Shown here: piece after piece, positions 14,314-25,511 of the stretch
Position numbering within the stretch: position 1 is the stretch's first letter
Layout: each line of letters opens with the position of its first letter
DNA from: Planctomycetota bacterium
GTDB taxonomy: Bacteria > Planctomycetota > Phycisphaerae > SM23-33
Assembly (NCBI GenBank): GCA_024275995.1
Contig: JAJRYB010000022.1
Coordinates: 1 to 61,914, forward strand
Direction of reading: 5' to 3'
Length of the DNA stretch: 61,914 nucleotides
Notes under the pieces: model-generated
The model's database searches: none
The model's input: only the letters and a program-made list of their open reading frames with translations
Told to the model about the DNA's origin: nothing
Made by a program: the position numbers and the translations under genes

Positions 14314-15366
14314 ATGACGAAAAGCGACGCGGCAAACCTGCCCGCGGCAATCGAAAGTGAAGACCAGTTGGCCGAGCTCCTAAGCCGTCCGACACCTCAG
14401 GTCGTCGATGCCTTTGGAGCCATGAAAGGCGACCTGGCGATAATAGGCGGCGGCGGAAAAATCGGACCGTCGCTTGTAGGCATGGCCTGCAGGGCTCGCG
14501 ATGAGGCAGGCGCGGAAACACGGATCACCGTGGTAGACCGCTTCCCCGAGCAGGGCGTGCGCGACTCGCTGGAGAAACTCGGCGCCGAGACTGTCGCGTG
14601 CGACCTTCTGGACCCCCAGGCTGCGAAATCTCTCCCTCCGGCGGAGAACGTCCTCTACATGATCGGCATGAAGTTCGGAACCATGGACAACCCGTCGCTG
14701 ACCTGGGCGGTGAACGGACTGATACCCGCATACGTAATGCCTCGCTACCGCGACGCGCGAATCGTAGCGTTCTCCACGGGATGCGTGTACAGCCTGGTCC
14801 CTCTCGATTCCGGCGGGTCCGTCGAGACGGATCCGACCGAACCGATGGGCGAATACTCCAATTCGTGCGTCGCCAGGGAGCGTATTTTCGAGCATTGCGC
14901 GATCGCCGGAAAAACCAGGCTCCTGCTGCTGCGTCTCAACTACGCGGTGGAAATGCGATACGGCGTGCTGGTGGATATCGCCTCGGCAATCGCCCGTTCC
15001 GAACCGGTGGACGTCGAAATGGGGCACCTGAACTGCATCTGGCAGGGCGACGTGAACGCAGCCGTGCTGCGCCTGCTCGAACACGCCTCCTATCCGCCGG
15101 TTCCGCTGAACCTCAGCGGAGCCGAGACGCTGAGCGTGCGCGACCTTGCCGGGCAAATGGCGAAGGTCATGGGCAAGCCCGTCACGTTCACCGGCAGCGA
15201 GGCTGAGACCGCCCTTCTGAGCAACTCGTCGAAAGCGCGCGAGATTCTCGGCGATCCTCCGACCCCGATAGGCCGCGTGGTCGAATGGACAGGCAAATGG
15301 GTCGCCGCGGGCGGAAAAGACATCGGAAAACCGACGCACTTCCAGACGCGCGACGGGAAGTATTAG
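14314..15366 (+). CDS. NAD-dependent epimerase/dehydratase (extended SDR)
   Basis: GGGGKIG Rossmann motif, GMKFG, FSTGCVY, EYSNSCVARE, C-terminal KPTHFQTRDGKY. Confidence 0.82.
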   Translation: MTKSDAANLPAAIESEDQLAELLSRPTPQVVDAFGAMKGDLAIIGGGGKIGPSLVGMACRARDEAGAETRITVVDRFPEQGVRDSLEKLGAETVACDLLDPQAAKSLPPAENVLYMIGMKFGTMDNPSLTWAVNGLIPAYVMPRYRDARIVAFSTGCVYSLVPLDSGGSVETDPTEPMGEYSNSCVARERIFEHCAIAGKTRLLLLRLNYAVEMRYGVLVDIASAIARSEPVDVEMGHLNCIWQGDVNAAVLRLLEHASYPPVPLNLSGAETLSVRDLAGQMAKVMGKPVTFTGSEAETALLSNSSKAREILGDPPTPIGRVVEWTGKWVAAGGKDIGKPTHFQTRDGKY

Positions 15367-15385
15367 GAGTAATAGGAGTAAACAG

Positions 15386-16456
15386 ATGGACCCTGCACCG
15401 ATAGACCCGTGGGCGATGGAGAAACTCGCCTCGGGATGCGTAATTCCAGCCCACCCGCTGGCGCTGAACGACGAGGGGCAATTCGACGTTCGCCACCAGC
15501 GCAGCCTGACCCGCTACTACGCAGCCGCCGGCGCCGGCGGCGTAGCCGTCGGGGTGCACACCACGCAGTTCGAGATACGCCGGCCTGAGATTTCCCTGCT
15601 GGAGACGGTGCTGAAATGCGCATCTGAGACACTCGACGAGATCGAACGGTCCGGCGGGGCGAAGCTGCTTCGCATCGCCGGCGTGTGCGGGCGAACGCCC
15701 CAGGCGCTCGCCGAGGCGAGGCTCGCACGCGAGATGGGTTATCACATCGCCCTGCTGAGCCTCGCGGCGCTTAACGACGCCGACGACGAAACGCTGATAC
15801 GCCATTGCGAAGCGCTCTCGGCAGAGATTCCACTGCTGGGGTTCTACCTCCAGCCCGCCGTCGGAGGACGCCGGTTGGGGTATGACTTCTGGCGACGCTT
15901 CGCAGCCATCCCGAACGTCGTCGGCGTGAAGGCAGCGCCGTTCAACCGGTACATGACTCTGGACGTAATTCGCGGCGTGGCTGCGAGCGGACGCGCCGGG
16001 GAGGTGTGCCTCTACACCGGAAACGACGATAATATCGTCGTCGATCTTATGACGCGCTTCAACGTGGCGACGGACGAGGGAGAGGTTTCCATGGAATTCG
16101 TCGGCGGACTGCTGGGCCACTGGGCGGTCTGGACGAAGGGCGCCGTTGAGATACTGCATCGCGCCCGCGCCGCAGCGGGGCGAGCTTCCGTACCCGCGGA
16201 GATGCTTTCGCTCGCAGCCGAGGTTACGGACATGAACGCGGCGCTGTTCGACGTGGCGAACGACTTCGCCGGGTGCATCGCCGGCGTACAGCACGTTCTG
16301 TGCAAACAGGGATTGCTGGCCTCTACGCGATGCCTGAATCCGCGGGAGGCGCTCTCGGAAGGGCAGGCCGAACAGATCGACCGCGTCCGGCGCGAGTATC
16401 CGCTCCTGGTGGACGACGATTTCGTCGCCGGGCATCTGAACGAATGGCTGGATTAG
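15386..16456 (+). CDS. Dihydrodipicolinate-synthase/NAL-superfamily class I aldolase-like protein
   Basis: VIPAHPLAL, GVHTTQF, GFYLQ, Schiff-base Lys in VVGVKAAPF, LYTGNDD. Confidence 0.82.
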   Translation: MDPAPIDPWAMEKLASGCVIPAHPLALNDEGQFDVRHQRSLTRYYAAAGAGGVAVGVHTTQFEIRRPEISLLETVLKCASETLDEIERSGGAKLLRIAGVCGRTPQALAEARLAREMGYHIALLSLAALNDADDETLIRHCEALSAEIPLLGFYLQPAVGGRRLGYDFWRRFAAIPNVVGVKAAPFNRYMTLDVIRGVAASGRAGEVCLYTGNDDNIVVDLMTRFNVATDEGEVSMEFVGGLLGHWAVWTKGAVEILHRARAAAGRASVPAEMLSLAAEVTDMNAALFDVANDFAGCIAGVQHVLCKQGLLASTRCLNPREALSEGQAEQIDRVRREYPLLVDDDFVAGHLNEWLD

Positions 16457-16616
16457 AGCAACGAAAGAATGAGATGTCGTATGGTTTCGTCGGTGAGGAC
16501 AAGGCCGGCAAGGAAGGAAAATAAGGCATATTCGCCAATATTCCGAATTTTTCCTGACGCCGCCGGCCGACGCCGCAAACAGAAAACATGCGGCAGGTCA
16601 ATCTTGAATTGCTCTA
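16454..16616 (+). mobile_element. MITE-like structured repeat, copy 1 (163 bp, TA-flanked, ~35 bp imperfect TIR)
   Basis: Begins TAGAGCAACGAAAGAATGAGATG and ends CAGGTCAATCTTGAATTGCTCTA; homologous copies at 17005 and 24121. Confidence 0.8.
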
Positions 16617-16817
16617 GACATCTCCTCCGCGACGGCGACGGCTTCGCCAAAGCTCGACCTTCAGGTCCATCACGAACCCCCAGACAAGGAAGGCGAACCC
16701 TATTACGCCCAGCGCAATGGCGTACCATTCAAACCACGGTTTCATGTCGCCGATTTTGTACACCGCCAGCAGTATCGTGTGCGCGAGTATCAGAAGTGCC
16801 CCGGTCATCATTCGCAT
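16614..16817 (-). CDS. Small (67 aa) two-TM membrane protein with basic C-terminal tail
   Basis: RBS TAAGGAG upstream of ATG 16817; two hydrophobic segments; ends RSRRRRGGDV. Confidence 0.65.
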   Translation of the reverse strand: MRMMTGALLILAHTILLAVYKIGDMKPWFEWYAIALGVIGFAFLVWGFVMDLKVELWRSRRRRGGDV

Positions 16818-17004
16818 AAGTCGCTCCTTATCGGCGGTGGCAGGAAGTGAACCATCATAATACCGCCCGCCGCTTATCGTCGCAACCCGGGGAATCCCCC
16901 AGGCAGTGCGGCGCGCGTTTCGATCTTGCAATATCAAGCCGGATCGATACCATTGCCTTTTTCGGACGGTTCTCTTTGAAACTACAAGACGCTGCCTGGG
17001 CTTT

Positions 17005-17168
17005 TAGAGCACCGAAAGTTTGAGATGTCGTATGGCTTCGTCGGTGAGGACAAGGTCGGCAAGGAACGAAAATGCAGGCATATCCTGACGATATGTCGAA
17101 TTTTCGTGACGCCGCCGACTGCAGCCGCAAACAGAAGACGTGCGGCAGATCAAACTTGAGTTGCTCTG
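17005..17168 (+). mobile_element. MITE-like structured repeat, copy 2 (more diverged)
   Basis: TAGAGCACCGAAAGTTTGAGATGTCGTATGG...CAGATCAAACTTGAGTTGCTCTG; collinear with copy 1. Confidence 0.78.
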
Positions 17169-17194
17169 GCCCCTCGTAAAAGGAGCTCGAAACA

Positions 17195-18658
17195 ATGCAG
17201 CAAGCTGCCGCGGACCTTGGCCTGATCGGCCTGGCTGTAATGGGACAAAACCTGGTCCTCAACATGAACGACAAGGGTTTCACCGTGGGCGTATTCAACC
17301 GCACGGTGAGCAAGGTGGACGATTTCCTCAACGGACCGGCAGCCGGTCGTGAAACGATCCTCGGCGCCCATAGCATCGAGGAATTCGTATCCCTGCTGAA
17401 ACGTCCGCGCCGCGTGATGCTGCTGGTAAAGGCGGGTTCGGCTGTGGACGCCTTCATCGAGAAGCTCCTGCCGCATCTTGAGGAAGGCGATATCATTATC
17501 GACGGTGGAAACAGCAACTTTCACGACACGATCCGCCGCTACGAATACGTCGAGAGCAAGGGCATGCTATATATCGGGACGGGTGTCTCCGGAGGCGAAG
17601 AAGGCGCGCGTCACGGGCCCAGCATAATGCCCGGTGGAAGCCCTGCCGCGTGGGAACACGTAAAACCGATCTTCCAGGCGGTCTCCGCGAAAGTGGATGA
17701 CGGCGAGCCTTGCTGCGACTGGGTGGGCGAGAACGGCGCGGGGCATTTCGTGAAGATGGTCCACAACGGTATCGAGTACGGCGATATGCAGCTTATCTGC
17801 GAAGCGTACCACCTGATGCAGACCATCGGAATGACCCCGGCTGAGATGTCCGAGGTATTCGCGCGTTGGAACCAAGGCGAGCTGGACAGCTACCTGATCG
17901 AGATCACGCGCGATATCCTCGCCAGGACGGACGACGAAACGGGCAAGGCGATGGTAGACGTGATCATGGACCGCGCCGGGCAGAAGGGGACCGGAAAGTG
18001 GACCGTGATAACCGCCTGTCAGCTCGGCATGCCGGTTACGCTGATCGGCGAGGCGGTCTTCGCGCGGTGCCTCTCGGCTATCAAGGAAGAGCGAGTCGCG
18101 GCGGCGCAGGTTCTTCGTGGCCCGAAACGCGCGTTCAAGGGCGACCGGGAAAAGTTCGTCGAGGATATCCGGCAGGCGCTCTACGCCAGCAAGATATGCT
18201 CGTACGCCCAGGGCTTCCAGATGATGCGCGCGGCGGCTGCGGAATACGACTGGAACCTGAACTTCGGAGGGATCGCACTTATGTGGCGAGGAGGGTGCAT
18301 TATCCGCAGCCAGTTCCTCGGTAAAATCAAGGACGCCTTCAGCCGAAAGAGGAAGAAAGTGGTGAACCTGCTGCTGGTGCCCTACTTCAAATCCGCCGTA
18401 CGCAAGGCGCAAGGCTCCTGGCGGCGCGTTATCACCCAGGCGGTCAAGCTGGGCGTTCCGGTTCCGGCCTTCTCCACGGCGCTTGCGTACTACGACGGGT
18501 ATCGCAACGCACGCCTGCCGCAGAATCTGCTCCAGGCGCAACGGGATTATTTCGGCGCGCATACCTACGAGCGCGTGGACAAACCCGTCGGCGAATTCTT
18601 CCACACCAACTGGACCGGTTCCGGCGGCGATACCACGGCAAGCACCTACACGGCGTAA
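17195..18658 (+). CDS. gnd: NADP-dependent 6-phosphogluconate dehydrogenase (decarboxylating)
   Basis: [54 protein letters not shown]. Confidence 0.97.
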
Positions 18659-18671
18659 CGATTGCGGATTG

Positions 18672-20159
18672 ATGAAAAACATTATCGAGAAACTGAAACA
18701 GGCGATCGCCCTGGACGTGTATGAACCGAGCGTTCACCGCGTCGGGGAGGTTACGTATTTCCTGGCGCGTCACGGACACCAGAAGGTCGTAGGCGCAATC
18801 GGCGACGACGAGATATCGGGCCGGCGCACAGGAAGCGTGGACGGACTGGCCGTAACCCTCGGCGAGTGCAACCACGAAAACGCACACACGATCCGTAACG
18901 AGCTGCCGTGGACGCGACCACGCTGCATCGGGCTGGCGACCAGCGCGGGCCTGGGCGACAGGCTGGGACTGGCGACGCCGGGACACGTCCGCGCGATACG
19001 AACCTGCGGAGCGGGCGTAACGCCGATTTTCGCCCAGCAGTCCATACGCGAGATGACACGCACGCAGCGCACGGCCCGGCAGGTAATAGACGCCGCTACC
19101 TGGGGAGTGCTCCAGGAAGGTTTTGGTAGTGACGGTGAAGTGTTCGGCTCCGATGCGGACCACCTCCAGCAGCCGGGCGATATCGACGTGACCGTCGCGG
19201 CTGGGTTCACGATGTTCACTATCGACCCCGGACTGCACGTGGAAAACCAGGCCGACGAGATGCACACCGACATGCTGGCGGACTACTTCGCCAAGCTGGA
19301 CTTCGAAGGCCTGGAAATATCCGAAGCGGACCTGACGAGCGCATACGTCGGAAAGACTTTCTCACTGGCCGGGGGAGGAGAAATCTCTTTCGACGAGATA
19401 TCGTTCCTCAGGGCGGCCGCTAAATATGGAAACGCCGTCGCGCACACAGCGAGCATGCACCGCCATCTCGCCGGAGTCGCCAGGGACGATTTCGAGTTGG
19501 AGGTTTCCGTCGACGAGACGGAGAGTCCGACAAGTCCGGCTGAGCACTATTTCTTCGCCTCCGAGCTGAAACGGCTGGGCGTGCAGTGGGTCTCGATGGC
19601 GCCGCGGCTGGTCGGACGAATGGAAAAAGGCGTGGACTACATCGGCGATCCGGAAAAGTTCCGATCGAGCTTCGCCGCTCACGCAGCCGTCATGAGAACG
19701 CTCGGCCCTTACAAAATTTCGATCCACTCCGGAAGCGACAAGTTCAGCATCTATCCCGTAATCGCGGAACTGACCGACGGGCTGGTTCACCTCAAGACGG
19801 CAGGGACCAGCTACCTGGAGGCGATCCGCGCGATAGCGTCGATAGACCCCGACCTGTTCCGGGAAATATACGACTTCGCCCGCGAGCACTACGATCAGGA
19901 CAAGGCCACCTACCACGTCTCGGCGGACATGGACAAGGTTCCCCCGGCAGGCGATTTCACCAACGACGATCTTGCCGCCCGCATCGACGATTTCGATACC
20001 CGCCAGGCGATGCACTGCACGTTCGGGTCCGTCCTTACCGCCGACGGCGGCGATCTGTTCCGCAAGCGAATCTACGAAGCGCTCGAGCGCGACGAAGATG
20101 TCTACTACGCCGCACTGGAAAAACACCTGGGCCGGCACGTGCAGCCGTTCGCGAGGTAA
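18672..20159 (+). CDS. uxaE: Tagaturonate/fructuronate epimerase
   Basis: GLGDRLGLATPGH, FAQQSIREM, GSDADHL, ELEVSVDE, EKGVDY, KISIHSGSDKF, HLKTAGTSYLEA. Confidence 0.9.
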   Translation: MKNIIEKLKQAIALDVYEPSVHRVGEVTYFLARHGHQKVVGAIGDDEISGRRTGSVDGLAVTLGECNHENAHTIRNELPWTRPRCIGLATSAGLGDRLGLATPGHVRAIRTCGAGVTPIFAQQSIREMTRTQRTARQVIDAATWGVLQEGFGSDGEVFGSDADHLQQPGDIDVTVAAGFTMFTIDPGLHVENQADEMHTDMLADYFAKLDFEGLEISEADLTSAYVGKTFSLAGGGEISFDEISFLRAAAKYGNAVAHTASMHRHLAGVARDDFELEVSVDETESPTSPAEHYFFASELKRLGVQWVSMAPRLVGRMEKGVDYIGDPEKFRSSFAAHAAVMRTLGPYKISIHSGSDKFSIYPVIAELTDGLVHLKTAGTSYLEAIRAIASIDPDLFREIYDFAREHYDQDKATYHVSADMDKVPPAGDFTNDDLAARIDDFDTRQAMHCTFGSVLTADGGDLFRKRIYEALERDEDVYYAALEKHLGRHVQPFAR

Positions 20160-23151: not shown

Positions 23152-24123
23152 ATGCAGTACGGAACCATTCCGGACGTTGACAAGCGCGTTTCCCGCGTAG
23201 CCCAGGGGCTGATAATGCTCGAAGAGGATGACCTCGAAGGGGGTATCGCCCTGCTCGATGCGGTCTATGCCACCGGCATCAACGCGTTCGACTCAGCAAA
23301 CAGATACAGCGGTGGGCAGTGCGACCGCGTGTTCGGAAAGTGGGTTCGAAGCCGAGGCCTTCGGGACAAGATCGTCCTGATGGACAAGTGCTGCCACCAC
23401 AACCAGGACCGCAAGCGCGTCACGACGTTCGACATCTCCGCCGATCTGCACGACTGCCTCGCCCGGCTGGAATTCGATTACATCGATATCTTCAGCTTTC
23501 ACCGCGACGATCCGAGCGCTCCGGTCGGACCGCTTGTCGAACGGATGAACGAGCATATCGCCGAAGGCAAGATCCGCGCCTACGGGGCATCGAACTGGAC
23601 CCACGAACGTATCCGGGAGGCGAACGAGTACGCCGAGGCCCGCGGGTTGAAGGGCCTGGTCGTCTCGAGTCCGCAGTATTCCCTCGCCGAGTGCGTTGAA
23701 GACCCATGGGGCGGCGGCAGCGTGACGATCACCGGCGAGGCCAACATCCCGGCCAGGCAATGGTACCAGGCGAACCAGATGGCCCTGCTTCCCTGGTCGA
23801 GCCTGTGCGGCGGATTCTTCTCCGGGCGTTTTCGGCGAGACAACCTTCAGGAATTTACCGACGATGCGGACACGCGCTGCGTTCGCTGCTATTGCACCGA
23901 GGATAACTTCCGACGCCTCGATCGTACCGAAAAGCTGGCCGCCGAGAAGGGCCTCACGCTCGCCCAGATCGCCTTGGCGTACGTGATCCACGGGCCGTTG
24001 AACTGCTTCCCGCTCATGGCTGCCTGGACGGCTGAGCAGGCGGTGGAGAATGCCAAGGCGGCTGACGTCGAACTGACATCCGACGAAATCGCATGGCTCG
24101 ATCTGCAACGCGACGCGCGATAG
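23152..24123 (+). CDS. Aldo/keto reductase
   Basis: FDSANRY, K (DKCC), FHRDD, GKIRAYGASNW, AQIALAY. Confidence 0.9.
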   Translation: MQYGTIPDVDKRVSRVAQGLIMLEEDDLEGGIALLDAVYATGINAFDSANRYSGGQCDRVFGKWVRSRGLRDKIVLMDKCCHHNQDRKRVTTFDISADLHDCLARLEFDYIDIFSFHRDDPSAPVGPLVERMNEHIAEGKIRAYGASNWTHERIREANEYAEARGLKGLVVSSPQYSLAECVEDPWGGGSVTITGEANIPARQWYQANQMALLPWSSLCGGFFSGRFRRDNLQEFTDDADTRCVRCYCTEDNFRRLDRTEKLAAEKGLTLAQIALAYVIHGPLNCFPLMAAWTAEQAVENAKAADVELTSDEIAWLDLQRDAR

Positions 24124-24284
24124 AGCAACGAAAGAATGAGATGCCGTATGGTTTCGTCGGTGAGGACAAGACCGGCGAGAAAGGAAAATAAGGCATATTC
24201 GCCAATATCCCGAATTTTGCCTGACCACGCCAGACGACGCCGCAAACTTCAAAACATGCTGCTGGCCAATCTTGAATTGCCCTG
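24121..24284 (+). mobile_element. MITE-like structured repeat, copy 3
   Basis: TAGAGCAACGAAAGAATGAGATGCCGTATGG...CAATCTTGAATTGCCCTG; the initial TAG is the AKR stop codon. Confidence 0.78.
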
Positions 24285-24324
24285 GACGACCGTAACGGCC
24301 GCCGGAATGCGTCGGGGAAAAATC

Positions 24325-24392: not shown

Positions 24393-25511
24393 TTACTCCA
24401 TCCCGAACATCCGCTCTTTCAGGTCGAGGTAGTACAGGTAGTCCTCCTGCTTGACGTTCGGCGGGCATCGGTGATCGCAGAACGGTATGTACCCGCCGCG
24501 CTCGACGTAGGGGACCAGCGATTCGAGGTATTTCCTGATCGCTTCGGGGCCCTTGCCCAATTCCATCTTGTCCACGCCGCCCATTATCCGCAGGTCCTTG
24601 CCGTATTCGTCCAGCAGCTCGCCCGGGTGCGCGCAGGAGTTCACCTCGTAGGGGAACAGGCAGTTGATTCCGCCTTCCATCAGCAGCCCAAGGATCGGGC
24701 GAACGTCGCCGTCGCAGTCGGTGAGCCATATGTCGATCCCGTGCGCGTGAAGCCGCCTGCTGATCCTCTTGTACCGCGGGACCACCACGTTTTTGAAGAA
24801 ATCGTGCGTTACGATAGGCCCGTGATTGAAACAGATGTCCTCCCACCCGCTGGCGAAGTCGAAATCGATGACGCCCAGCACCTGGTCCAGAAAGTCCTCC
24901 ACCAGCACGCAGCTGGTTTCGACCATGTCTTCGACCATGGCTGGGTAATCGAAGCAGGCATAGGCCAGCCCCTCGAACGTCAGCAGGTCGCGGACCTTTC
25001 CGATCATCGATCCGCAGTCCACAGCCACCGGAAAGTCGCGATCGGGTGGGTAAAGCCTCTTGAGTTCATCGAGGTCCACCTTTCGCGCGGGATCGTCACG
25101 GCGGAAACGCTCTTCCTTCATTCGCTTCCAGTCGTCGGGCGTTTCGATGGGGCTTTTGGTGAAGTGCGGGATCGTGGAGTGCCCGTCCTTCGCCACCTCG
25201 CCGATCAGGCCCTCTGCGTTCCGGATGATCTTCTTGTCCGCCGTCTCCTCGATAACCTTGTACTCGAACTGCGGATGCATCCACGCACTACCGTGCTGCG
25301 CGTATCTATCGAAGTTGAAGAAGACATCCGCTTCGGCATTGTTCGTGATCCCGTTATCGCGGAAGATCGGCCATTCCGAAAAATTCTCCTGCCAGTATCC
25401 GAACTCCATGTTGAAGCAGCGGTCAACCGGCCTGTAGTGCATCTGGTTGTTGAACCGCTCGCGATCGGTCATTGCGCTTTTCCACTTGGGACGGCATGGC
25501 GTTACGGACAT
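24393..25511 (-). CDS. Uroporphyrinogen decarboxylase/MtaA-CmuA (URO-D-like) family protein
   Basis: MTDRERF N-terminus, WEDIC, DCDGD, IMGGVDK, GGYIPFCDHRCPPNV. Confidence 0.82.
   Translation of the reverse strand: MSVTPCRPKWKSAMTDRERFNNQMHYRPVDRCFNMEFGYWQENFSEWPIFRDNGITNNAEADVFFNFDRYAQHGSAWMHPQFEYKVIEETADKKIIRNAEGLIGEVAKDGHSTIPHFTKSPIETPDDWKRMKEERFRRDDPARKVDLDELKRLYPPDRDFPVAVDCGSMIGKVRDLLTFEGLAYACFDYPAMVEDMVETSCVLVEDFLDQVLGVIDFDFASGWEDICFNHGPIVTHDFFKNVVVPRYKRISRRLHAHGIDIWLTDCDGDVRPILGLLMEGGINCLFPYEVNSCAHPGELLDEYGKDLRIMGGVDKMELGKGPEAIRKYLESLVPYVERGGYIPFCDHRCPPNVKQEDYLYYLDLKERMFGME

Follow-up and report, generated by a model that had tools for sequence, protein, structure and literature searches.

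Short repeats that pair with themselves are known from the intergenic regions of several bacterial groups, and a number of them offer close comparisons for the repeat family examined here. RUP is a small non-coding repeat, a 107-bp MITE attributed to IS630-Spn1, which has IS630-like terminal repeats, inserts at TA and is predicted to yield a tightly folded transcript in which the terminal repeats pair (PMC2229807, PMC3049150). The Correia or NEMIS elements of Neisseria are described as TA-flanked MITEs of 100-155 bp with terminal repeats of about 24-26 bp; they are co-transcribed with neighbouring genes, their RNA hairpins have been proposed as targets of RNase III, and one class carries an internal IHF site (PMC2229807). 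The same source presents the ERIC or IRU repeats of enterobacteria as imperfect palindromes of about 127 bp with TA termini and terminal repeats of 7 bp, which are co-transcribed and have an orientation-dependent effect on the stability of the upstream mRNA. SPRITE, a terminator-like pneumococcal repeat, is enriched near the 3′ ends of convergent genes (PMC3049150). REP units are palindromes of 20-40 nt tagged with GTAG or CGTC at one end, and ‘TIR-associated’ Y1 transposases with MITE-like repeats have also been described (both PMC3733652). The likenesses drawn below are by description, as given in the sections of these papers that deal with each repeat. Literature searches covering planctomycete MITEs, REPIN/RAYT systems and IS630 MITEs turned up no description of the present family.

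We analysed a stretch of 61,914 nt (hereafter the window), contig JAJRYB010000022.1 of a Planctomycetota genome (assembly GCA_024275995.1) that comprises 134 contigs and 2.64 Mb, with 60% G+C and 97% completeness. A repeat of about 165 nt is present three times in the window, always on the plus strand (Table 1). Each copy is an imperfect palindrome over its full length and, as a single strand, would form a rod-like hairpin. The initial annotation had drawn attention to positions 16503-17120, which run from the core of copy 1 through the core of copy 2 and do not cover the full units. In folding predictions, copies 1 and 2 each form one end-to-end hairpin (−69.5 and −78 kcal/mol, with z-scores of −7.6 and −7.9), and none of 200 shuffled sequences folded equally well. 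Copy 2 ends about 26 nt before the start codon of gnd and lies in sense with it, and the small ORF of about 68 aa that converges on copy 1 had no Pfam match. The best hits of gnd are to MAGs labelled Planctomycetaceae, at 83% and 77% identity. A scan of positions 16300-17300 for promoter and terminator consensus sequences returned nothing above the shuffled expectation inside the elements, except for the small apical stem of copy 2.

Table 1. Copies of the repeat in the window, their apical core modules and the adjacent genes.
Feature	Position	Strand	Remarks
Gene upstream of copy 1, DHDPS-family (weak Pfam match)	15386..16456	+	
MITE copy 1	about 16454..16616	+	TA to TA; covariance model R1 176.5 bits
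Copy 1 apical core module	16501..16570	+	outer, middle and inner stems with AAGGA / GACGCC internal loop; R2 81 bits
Small hydrophobic ORF of ~68 aa, convergent with the DHDPS-family gene	16614..16819	-	uncertain as a gene
MITE copy 2	about 17005..17168	+	R1 155.2 bits; TA at 3′ end mutated to TG
Copy 2 apical core module	17052..17122	+	R2 60.5 bits
gnd, 6-phosphogluconate dehydrogenase, 3′ of copy 2	17195..18658	+	
Aldo/keto reductase gene upstream of copy 3	23152..24123	+	
MITE copy 3	about 24121..24285	+	decaying; R1 125.6 bits, R2 55.4 bits
URO-D-like gene, convergent, beyond copy 3	24393..25511	-	

The three stems of the core differ between copies 1 and 2 in the way that had been noticed at first sight of the sequence. 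The outer stem, GGCCGGC/GCCGGCC in copy 1, reads GGTCGGC/GCCGACT in copy 2, a swap of C-G for U-A together with a change from G-C to G·U. The middle stem goes from GGAAAAT/ATTTT(T)CC to CGAAAAT/ATTTTCG (G-C to C-G) and the inner stem from ATATT/AATAT to ATATC/GATAT (U-A to C-G), and the loop sequences AAGGAA, TGACGCC and AGGC are identical in the two copies. Copy 3 does have the weaker outer stem ascribed to it, with two mismatches, and its loops are mutated. The observation of a compensated nested stem-loop made in the initial annotation is confirmed, and it is a strong one.

Two alignments were used to assess the fold beyond the window. The first, made with MAFFT from sequence alone, contains 45 copies, for which RNAalifold predicted 32 pairs; 95.6% of the cells were paired, compared with 37-52% when the partners were slid, 25 of the 32 pairs showed double changes, and none of 500 shuffles reached the observed values. 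The second was fitted to a covariance model and contains 56 copies from about 35 genomes: 90.3% of the cells were paired (34-42% in the slid controls), 39 of the 46 pairs showed double changes, and the covariation score was 0.564 against 0.09-0.11, again reached by none of 500 shuffles, figures that lean towards the structure of the model and include related, non-independent copies, yet agree with the MAFFT alignment. Compensatory changes therefore maintain the fold, as had been claimed from two copies. Over the 56 copies, pairing in helix 1 amounts to 96.4%, and helices 4-6, the outer, middle and inner stems of the core, have double changes in 7 of 7, 7 of 8 and 6 of 7 pairs. Covariation of this kind, in core stems for which no DNA-level constraint seems to account, is what a functional structured RNA would be expected to show. 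Two additions to the fold were considered and set aside. Three A-U pairs that extend the middle stem of copy 1 are specific to one subfamily and unpaired in 38-40 of the 56 copies, which leaves them unsupported as a general feature, and an alternative pairing that would bridge the large internal loop between CGTCGG and CCGACG was dropped by eye, its 3′ partner varying without compensation.

The ends of the element read TAGAGCA.../...TGCTCTA and form terminal inverted repeats of about 27 nt. The sister genome G027 contains two elements, each about 1 kb long (L285:1022-2027 and L289:1032-2024), with matches to Pfam HTH_Tnp_IS630 and DDE_3 in two overlapping frames. Their 27-nt terminal repeats begin like those of the repeat family, agreeing with a copy from G097 at 25 and 22 of the 27 positions and with a copy from G014 at 23 of 27, and one of the two elements is adjoined by a 105-nt MITE with the same ends and a different interior. 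A further IS630 element resides in G042 in seven copies; its terminal repeats differ from those of the main family, and the arms they do resemble are those of a minor subfamily with the core, at about 23 of 33 bases as judged by eye. The 97%-complete, 134-contig assembly of the window’s genome gave no match to DDE_3 or DDE_Tnp_1, so that the IS630 partner transposase is seen in relatives only. A flank parser could read 75 of 99 copies, skipping 24, and of these 75, 57 had TA at the 5′ end and 58 had it at the 3′ end, although TA is self-complementary and thus also extends the palindrome. A pyrimidine before the first TA and a purine after the last one were present in 55 of the 75. The target of IS630 elements is TA within CTAG, a target that this context fits.

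The initial annotation had suggested that the element may be more than an inert MITE: a structured ncRNA, an mRNA-end processing or stability signal, or a recombinase substrate. By its IS630-type terminal repeats and TA flanks it is a MITE and not an alternative to one, and we infer that it is mobilised by an IS630 transposase. Our preferred reading, to which we assign a probability of about 0.6 as a whole, is that the repeat is a short, non-coding, dispersed MITE of the IS630/Tc1-mariner type whose core acts as a sense-strand RNA. An IS630-family transposase supplied in trans would bind the terminal inverted repeats of about 27 nt, and the element would insert at TA in a pyrimidine-TA-purine context. 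The core module would then work on the sense strand as RNA wherever the element is read through within an intercistronic spacer or a 3′ UTR; by binding a protein, protecting an RNA end or directing processing, the hairpin could make insertions harmless or useful, and the MITE lineages that keep the core would be those that go on spreading. RUP is similar in its IS630-type terminal repeats, its TA target and its predicted folded transcript. The repeat described here is longer and belongs to another phylum, and it has an internal module common to MITEs with unrelated arms and covariation across the phylum, neither of which we found stated for RUP in the passages of the two sources that describe it.

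We retrieved 13 full-length copies, together with partial ones, from the window’s genome with nhmmer, and 17-21 with the covariance model. The unit length is 163-167 nt and all copies are intergenic. Being mutually 70-91% alike, they look like older insertions; otherwise the partner element is missing from the assembly. A subfamily of 14 copies in G027, by comparison, has a mean pairwise identity of 96%, which indicates a recent burst. Between the congeners G081 and G082, none of the 10 copies of the former shares its flanks with any of the four copies of the latter. In G081, one copy begins at a gene’s stop codon; the G082 orthologue of that gene ends in TGA and lacks the element. The convergent downstream gene is conserved between the filled and the empty locus, and the right flank is unalignable. 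A nucleotide-exact empty site with a single TA was not found, the empty site of G082 having the TGA stop. A second G081 locus (L325) was uninformative, as its flanks map to separate contigs in G083 and adjoin the end of a contig in G082. A metagenome scan with the upstream protein gave a best relative with 72% identity and no close comparator for empty sites. The element was not found in 80 loci of gnd relatives in a scan of gnd contigs, and the genes upstream of gnd were not conserved in the loci of 29 relatives, among which there was no readable empty site.

Stop codons are recurrent neighbours of the element. The stop of the upstream gene is the element’s own TAG in 12 of 38 cases, and a convergent downstream gene ends in the element’s CTA in 5 of 25. 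Both overlaps are present at copy 1, where the upstream DHDPS-family gene terminates in the first TAG and the small convergent ORF, on the opposite strand, in the last CTA; at copy 3, the aldo/keto reductase gene terminates in the first TAG. Since the element starts with G after the TA, a TAA or TAG stop whose TA it enters is rebuilt as TAG, and copies can thus settle exactly at gene ends. This offers a mechanistic account of repeats that sit precisely on stop codons.

To map the family, we used a covariance model of the whole element (R1), built from 45 copies. Within the order, it detected the element in 58 of 99 genomes and 46 of 67 genera, both counts including the window’s genome. Copies per genome ranged from 0 to 53 or more, with 53 in G042, an assembly of six contigs. 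Elsewhere in the phylum, 6 of 150 sampled genomes gave weaker full-length matches in which the same loop sequences are kept; the constancy of the internal loops, first remarked on between neighbouring copies, thus holds well beyond the window’s genome. The genes next to the copies are unrelated from one copy to another. Viral contigs yielded at least 119 loose matches to the core pattern, but among 100 of them rescored with a model of the core only (R2), just 2 reached scores of 21.7-23.8 bits. Matches this weak are attributable to chance and provide no evidence of phage carriage.

The apical portion of the hairpin, about 70 nt long, is a conserved module in which three covarying stems are arranged around purine-rich internal loops. 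Its 5′ side carries GGCAAGGA and its 3′ side GAC-G/A-N-N-GCC; across copies, both vary little or not at all, and the same holds for an AGGCA that precedes the apical stem and lies near the second loop. The core stems between these fixed loops turn over completely. In RNA, tandem G·A/A·G pairs could follow a G-C pair within the first core loop, a reading that draws on the invariant G, G-A and G-A-C positions. With R2 we found 28 core copies in the window’s genome, of which 17 belong to the main family; the others lie in at least four other long hairpins with unrelated arms, most of which have TA-flanked ends. Within G042, the same core is present inside elements with three other arm types. Across the 150 genomes sampled elsewhere in the phylum, R2 detected the core in 13, compared with the 6 found by R1, and in 11 folded loci from other orders it was always contained in a longer hairpin. 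No stand-alone core occurred among the cores examined in the window’s genome, in G042 and in the phylum sample.

The core is therefore a cargo common to several MITE vehicles, and it is separable from them, since it is kept while the arms are unrelated. The MITE type itself is known; what is new is that MITEs whose arms are unrelated contain an apical module of about 70 nt with invariant loops. Bacterial MITEs are commonly regarded as junk, and their hairpins as a mere consequence of being palindromic; here a structured module persists across a phylum. The fixed fold and loops over this range suggest a function for the fold itself, probably at the RNA level, and the separation of cargo from vehicle makes the family a clean means of studying the role of an RNA hairpin carried by a MITE.

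The main rival to an RNA role of the core is that the element is an inert MITE whose hairpin is a by-product of its palindromic construction. The pairing of the arms would then stem from their fit to the transposase, from hairpin- or cruciform-templated repair or from gene conversion between the arms, and the conserved boxes would be recognised as DNA, for instance by a bending protein of the host that aids synapsis of so short an element. The clear MITE identity agrees with this, as does the location of about half of the pairs within the terminal repeats: both ends must bind one transposase, so that pairing of the outer 27 nt or so needs no fold. The core stems, however, lie outside the terminal repeats and covary in nearly every pair, and the loops of the core are kept while the arms are wholly replaced. 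Moreover, DDE transposases of the IS630 type act by cut-and-paste without a single-strand stage. The Correia or NEMIS elements are likewise TA-flanked MITEs with terminal repeats of similar length. As described, their internal site is one in duplex DNA, in another host phylum, whereas the conserved sequences here are the internal loops of a covarying single-strand fold.

Strand polarity bears on the same choice. Covariance-model scores were 99-176 bits on the forward strand and 36-49 bits on the reverse strand of the same loci. Among mispairs in the stems, G·U outnumbered A·C by 142 to 29 (66 to 17 after dereplication at 80%), with 85:16 in the arms and 57:13 in the core; counted by alignment columns, the ratios were 17:1 and 9:4, respectively. 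A G·T mispair on one strand is an A·C mispair on the other, and a duplex or cruciform would consequently give no such asymmetry. The fivefold excess of G·U over A·C and the orientation of the copies are thus unexpected for an inert MITE. Between genes that point in the same direction, 33 copies were in sense and 10 in antisense (14:1 in the multi-genome set and 19:9 in G042, a modest bias in that genome alone), according to simple codon-score gene calls. By the same calls, 34 copies lay between convergent genes and 8 between divergent genes (21:6 in the multi-genome set and 13:2 in G042). A chromosome has equal numbers of convergent and divergent spacers. Replication strand was rejected as the cause of the orientation, as the two orientations are interleaved along the 2.4-Mb contig of G042.

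The excess of G·U, the orientation and the preference for convergent spacers together point to selection on one strand, probably on RNA in 3′ UTRs or intercistronic spacers. In its orientation bias the element parallels ERIC or IRU, whose effect on the upstream mRNA is described as dependent on orientation; those repeats are presented as having no known partner transposase, whereas an IS630 partner family can be named here and the terminal repeats are about 27 nt long. The preference for convergent spacers recalls SPRITE. That repeat is described as resembling a Rho-independent terminator, whereas the present element is a long rod without a U-tract: a run of U (at least 5 T in the 10 nt after the element) follows only 7 of 98 copies, so it is not a classical intrinsic terminator.

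Within young subfamilies, by contrast with the family as a whole, the fold seems little protected. Changes in pairs gave G·U and A·C in similar numbers in three of them (10 vs 9, 8 vs 7 and 16 vs 13), substitutions broke pairs, and only 1, 1 and 8 pairs were compensated. Paired and unpaired positions had changed by 2.1% vs 3.4%, 3.2% vs 2.0% and 4.5% vs 10.8%, so that pairing spared a site slightly or inconsistently. Individual young copies thus seem to decay nearly neutrally, and the compensated differences, including those between copies 1 and 2, must lie between subfamilies. The proposal of selection on a single-strand fold is accordingly upheld in one part: the model scores, the excess of G·U and the orientation indicate a constraint on one strand. 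The other part is not supported, for purifying selection on the fold is not seen in young copies, and selection seems to act on the lineages that propagate or become fixed, not demonstrably on each resident copy. The decay of young copies without compensation or a preference for G·U is what an inert MITE would show. Taken with the evidence from the core and from strand polarity, we regard that explanation as the leading alternative, though a rather unlikely one.

Polarity would also be explained if the element were moved as single-stranded DNA. In this scenario, the repeat would be a REPIN-like element mobilised by a Y1 (HUH) transposase of the RAYT/IS200 kind, an enzyme that reads one-strand hairpins and would therefore account for both the polarity and the tolerance of G·T. 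REPINs are likewise long hairpins with compensatory changes, and the window’s genome has five Y1_Tnp matches above the Pfam cut-off. The ‘TIR-associated’ Y1 transposases mentioned above show that MITE-like repeats can accompany such enzymes, at least in the account given of them (PMC3733652). Yet the present element flanks none of the five Y1 genes, four of which lie between different inverted repeats of their own; the element’s flanks are TA and its terminal repeats match IS630 elements; and the orientation along the 2.4-Mb contig of G042 is mixed, with no single switch. The family shares with REP and REPIN sequences its position as extragenic palindromes at gene ends, its long hairpins and its long persistence in a lineage. 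It differs from them in being a single hairpin of about 165 nt with TAGAGC ends, in which the CGTCGG box is internal and there is no terminal tag, and in having TA flanks and IS630-type repeats where flanking of a RAYT gene would be expected, which is absent at the five Y1 loci. We consider movement by a Y1 enzyme highly improbable. The initial suggestion that the fold is a recombinase substrate fared no better, since nothing points to it and the five Y1 transposase genes are accompanied by other palindromes.

If the core acts as RNA, its primary role might instead be the control of host genes at each locus. It would then be a host-encoded structured RNA, such as a leader, a trailer, an sRNA or an atypical terminator, whose repetition would be only apparent or which MITEs would have captured secondarily. 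The conservation of the loops across the phylum and the position of copies at the 3′ ends of genes are in keeping with this. CsrA-type proteins bind purine-rich GGA loops, and the GGA loop of the core is of that kind; csrA is present in the window’s genome and in 90 of the 99 genomes of the order. The distribution of csrA does not track that of the element, however, and with csrA so widespread its presence was discarded as a carrier marker, carriers and non-carriers not being told apart by it. Rfam 15 covariance models gave no match at E ≤ 1 in positions 15000-19000 of the window. In addition, every core examined lies within a longer hairpin, most of them TA-flanked, and none stands alone; the neighbouring genes are unrelated between copies; sites are not common to congeners; the U-run of a terminator is rare after the element; and copies decay after insertion, as seen in the young subfamilies and in copy 3. 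These observations make a host-encoded RNA improbable as the origin of the family, and the IS630-type MITE with an RNA-active core remains our preferred explanation.

A bolder version of the preferred explanation would assign the core a regulatory role. The module of about 70 nt may be a protein-binding RNA motif, with an invariant GGA in a tandem G·A-type loop of the kind bound by CsrA-like or kink-turn-binding proteins, which is carried on several IS630-type MITEs. Landing directly after stop codons, it would link the 3′ UTRs of dozens of genes in each genome, across Planctomycetota, in a single post-transcriptional circuit. We consider this unlikely. If it were true, the retention of the core by unrelated MITE lineages would be explained by its benefit to the host.

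R1 and R2 can serve as markers for annotating the intergenic regions of planctomycete MAGs. Such repeats break the assemblies of these MAGs and create spurious ORF ends.

The apical core of the window element, its structured module of ~70 nt, was also found on other arms in the same genome (G000). A second MITE-like family located outside the window is ~170 nt long, flanked by TA, and has ends that start with TAGAAGTCATCCC; its apical core is that of the window element, and its arms are unrelated to those of that element. A weak match to R2, the core-only covariance model (23.8 bits, E 0.003), lies outside the window within yet another hairpin family, in the spacer ~245 nt upstream of csrA, a position that may be a coincidence.

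In one member of the window element's family, 201 nt long, the apical loop is longer by ~36 bases. A MITE of 105 nt, inserted into an apparent other transposase or integrase gene, carries the same IS630-type terminal repeats around a different, terminator-like interior. Copies of the family also occur back to back, two of them in opposite orientation and separated by 31 nt, and one starting right at the terminal GCTCTA of an apparent other copy.

Coordinates of the features (C, contig; L, extracted locus; G, genome)
Feature	Location	Strand
Second MITE-like family	G000 C114:27076-27266	
Second MITE-like family	G000 C125:18160-18350	
Second MITE-like family	G000 C101:26024-26214	
Weak core match	G000 C99:21329-21395	
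csrA	G000 C99:21641-21796	
201-nt member	L145:1501-1701 (G020:C41:3862-4062)	
105-nt MITE	L285:408-512 (G027)	
Back-to-back copies	G042:C4:1204903-1205262	
Back-to-back copies	L281:2490-2664	
Y1 matches (L169-L173)	G000 C9:4613-4954	
	G000 C42:26172-26510	
	G000 C49:10109-10441	
	G000 C67:11612-11836	
	G000 C14:52930-53292	
Small ORF	window 16614-16819	-

Five Y1 (IS200/RAYT-like) transposase matches were retrieved from G000; the four on C9, C42, C49 and C14 each lie between inverted repeats of their own. The C14 pair forms a REP-like hairpin of the classical GTAG-tagged kind, and the C9 pair is a 91-nt arm made up of ~68-nt tandem units.

Between copies 1 and 2 of the window element lies a small hydrophobic ORF of ~68 aa, for which no Pfam match was found. 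The ORF takes its stop codon from the right end of copy 1, and its C-terminus may therefore have been reshaped by the insertion of that copy.
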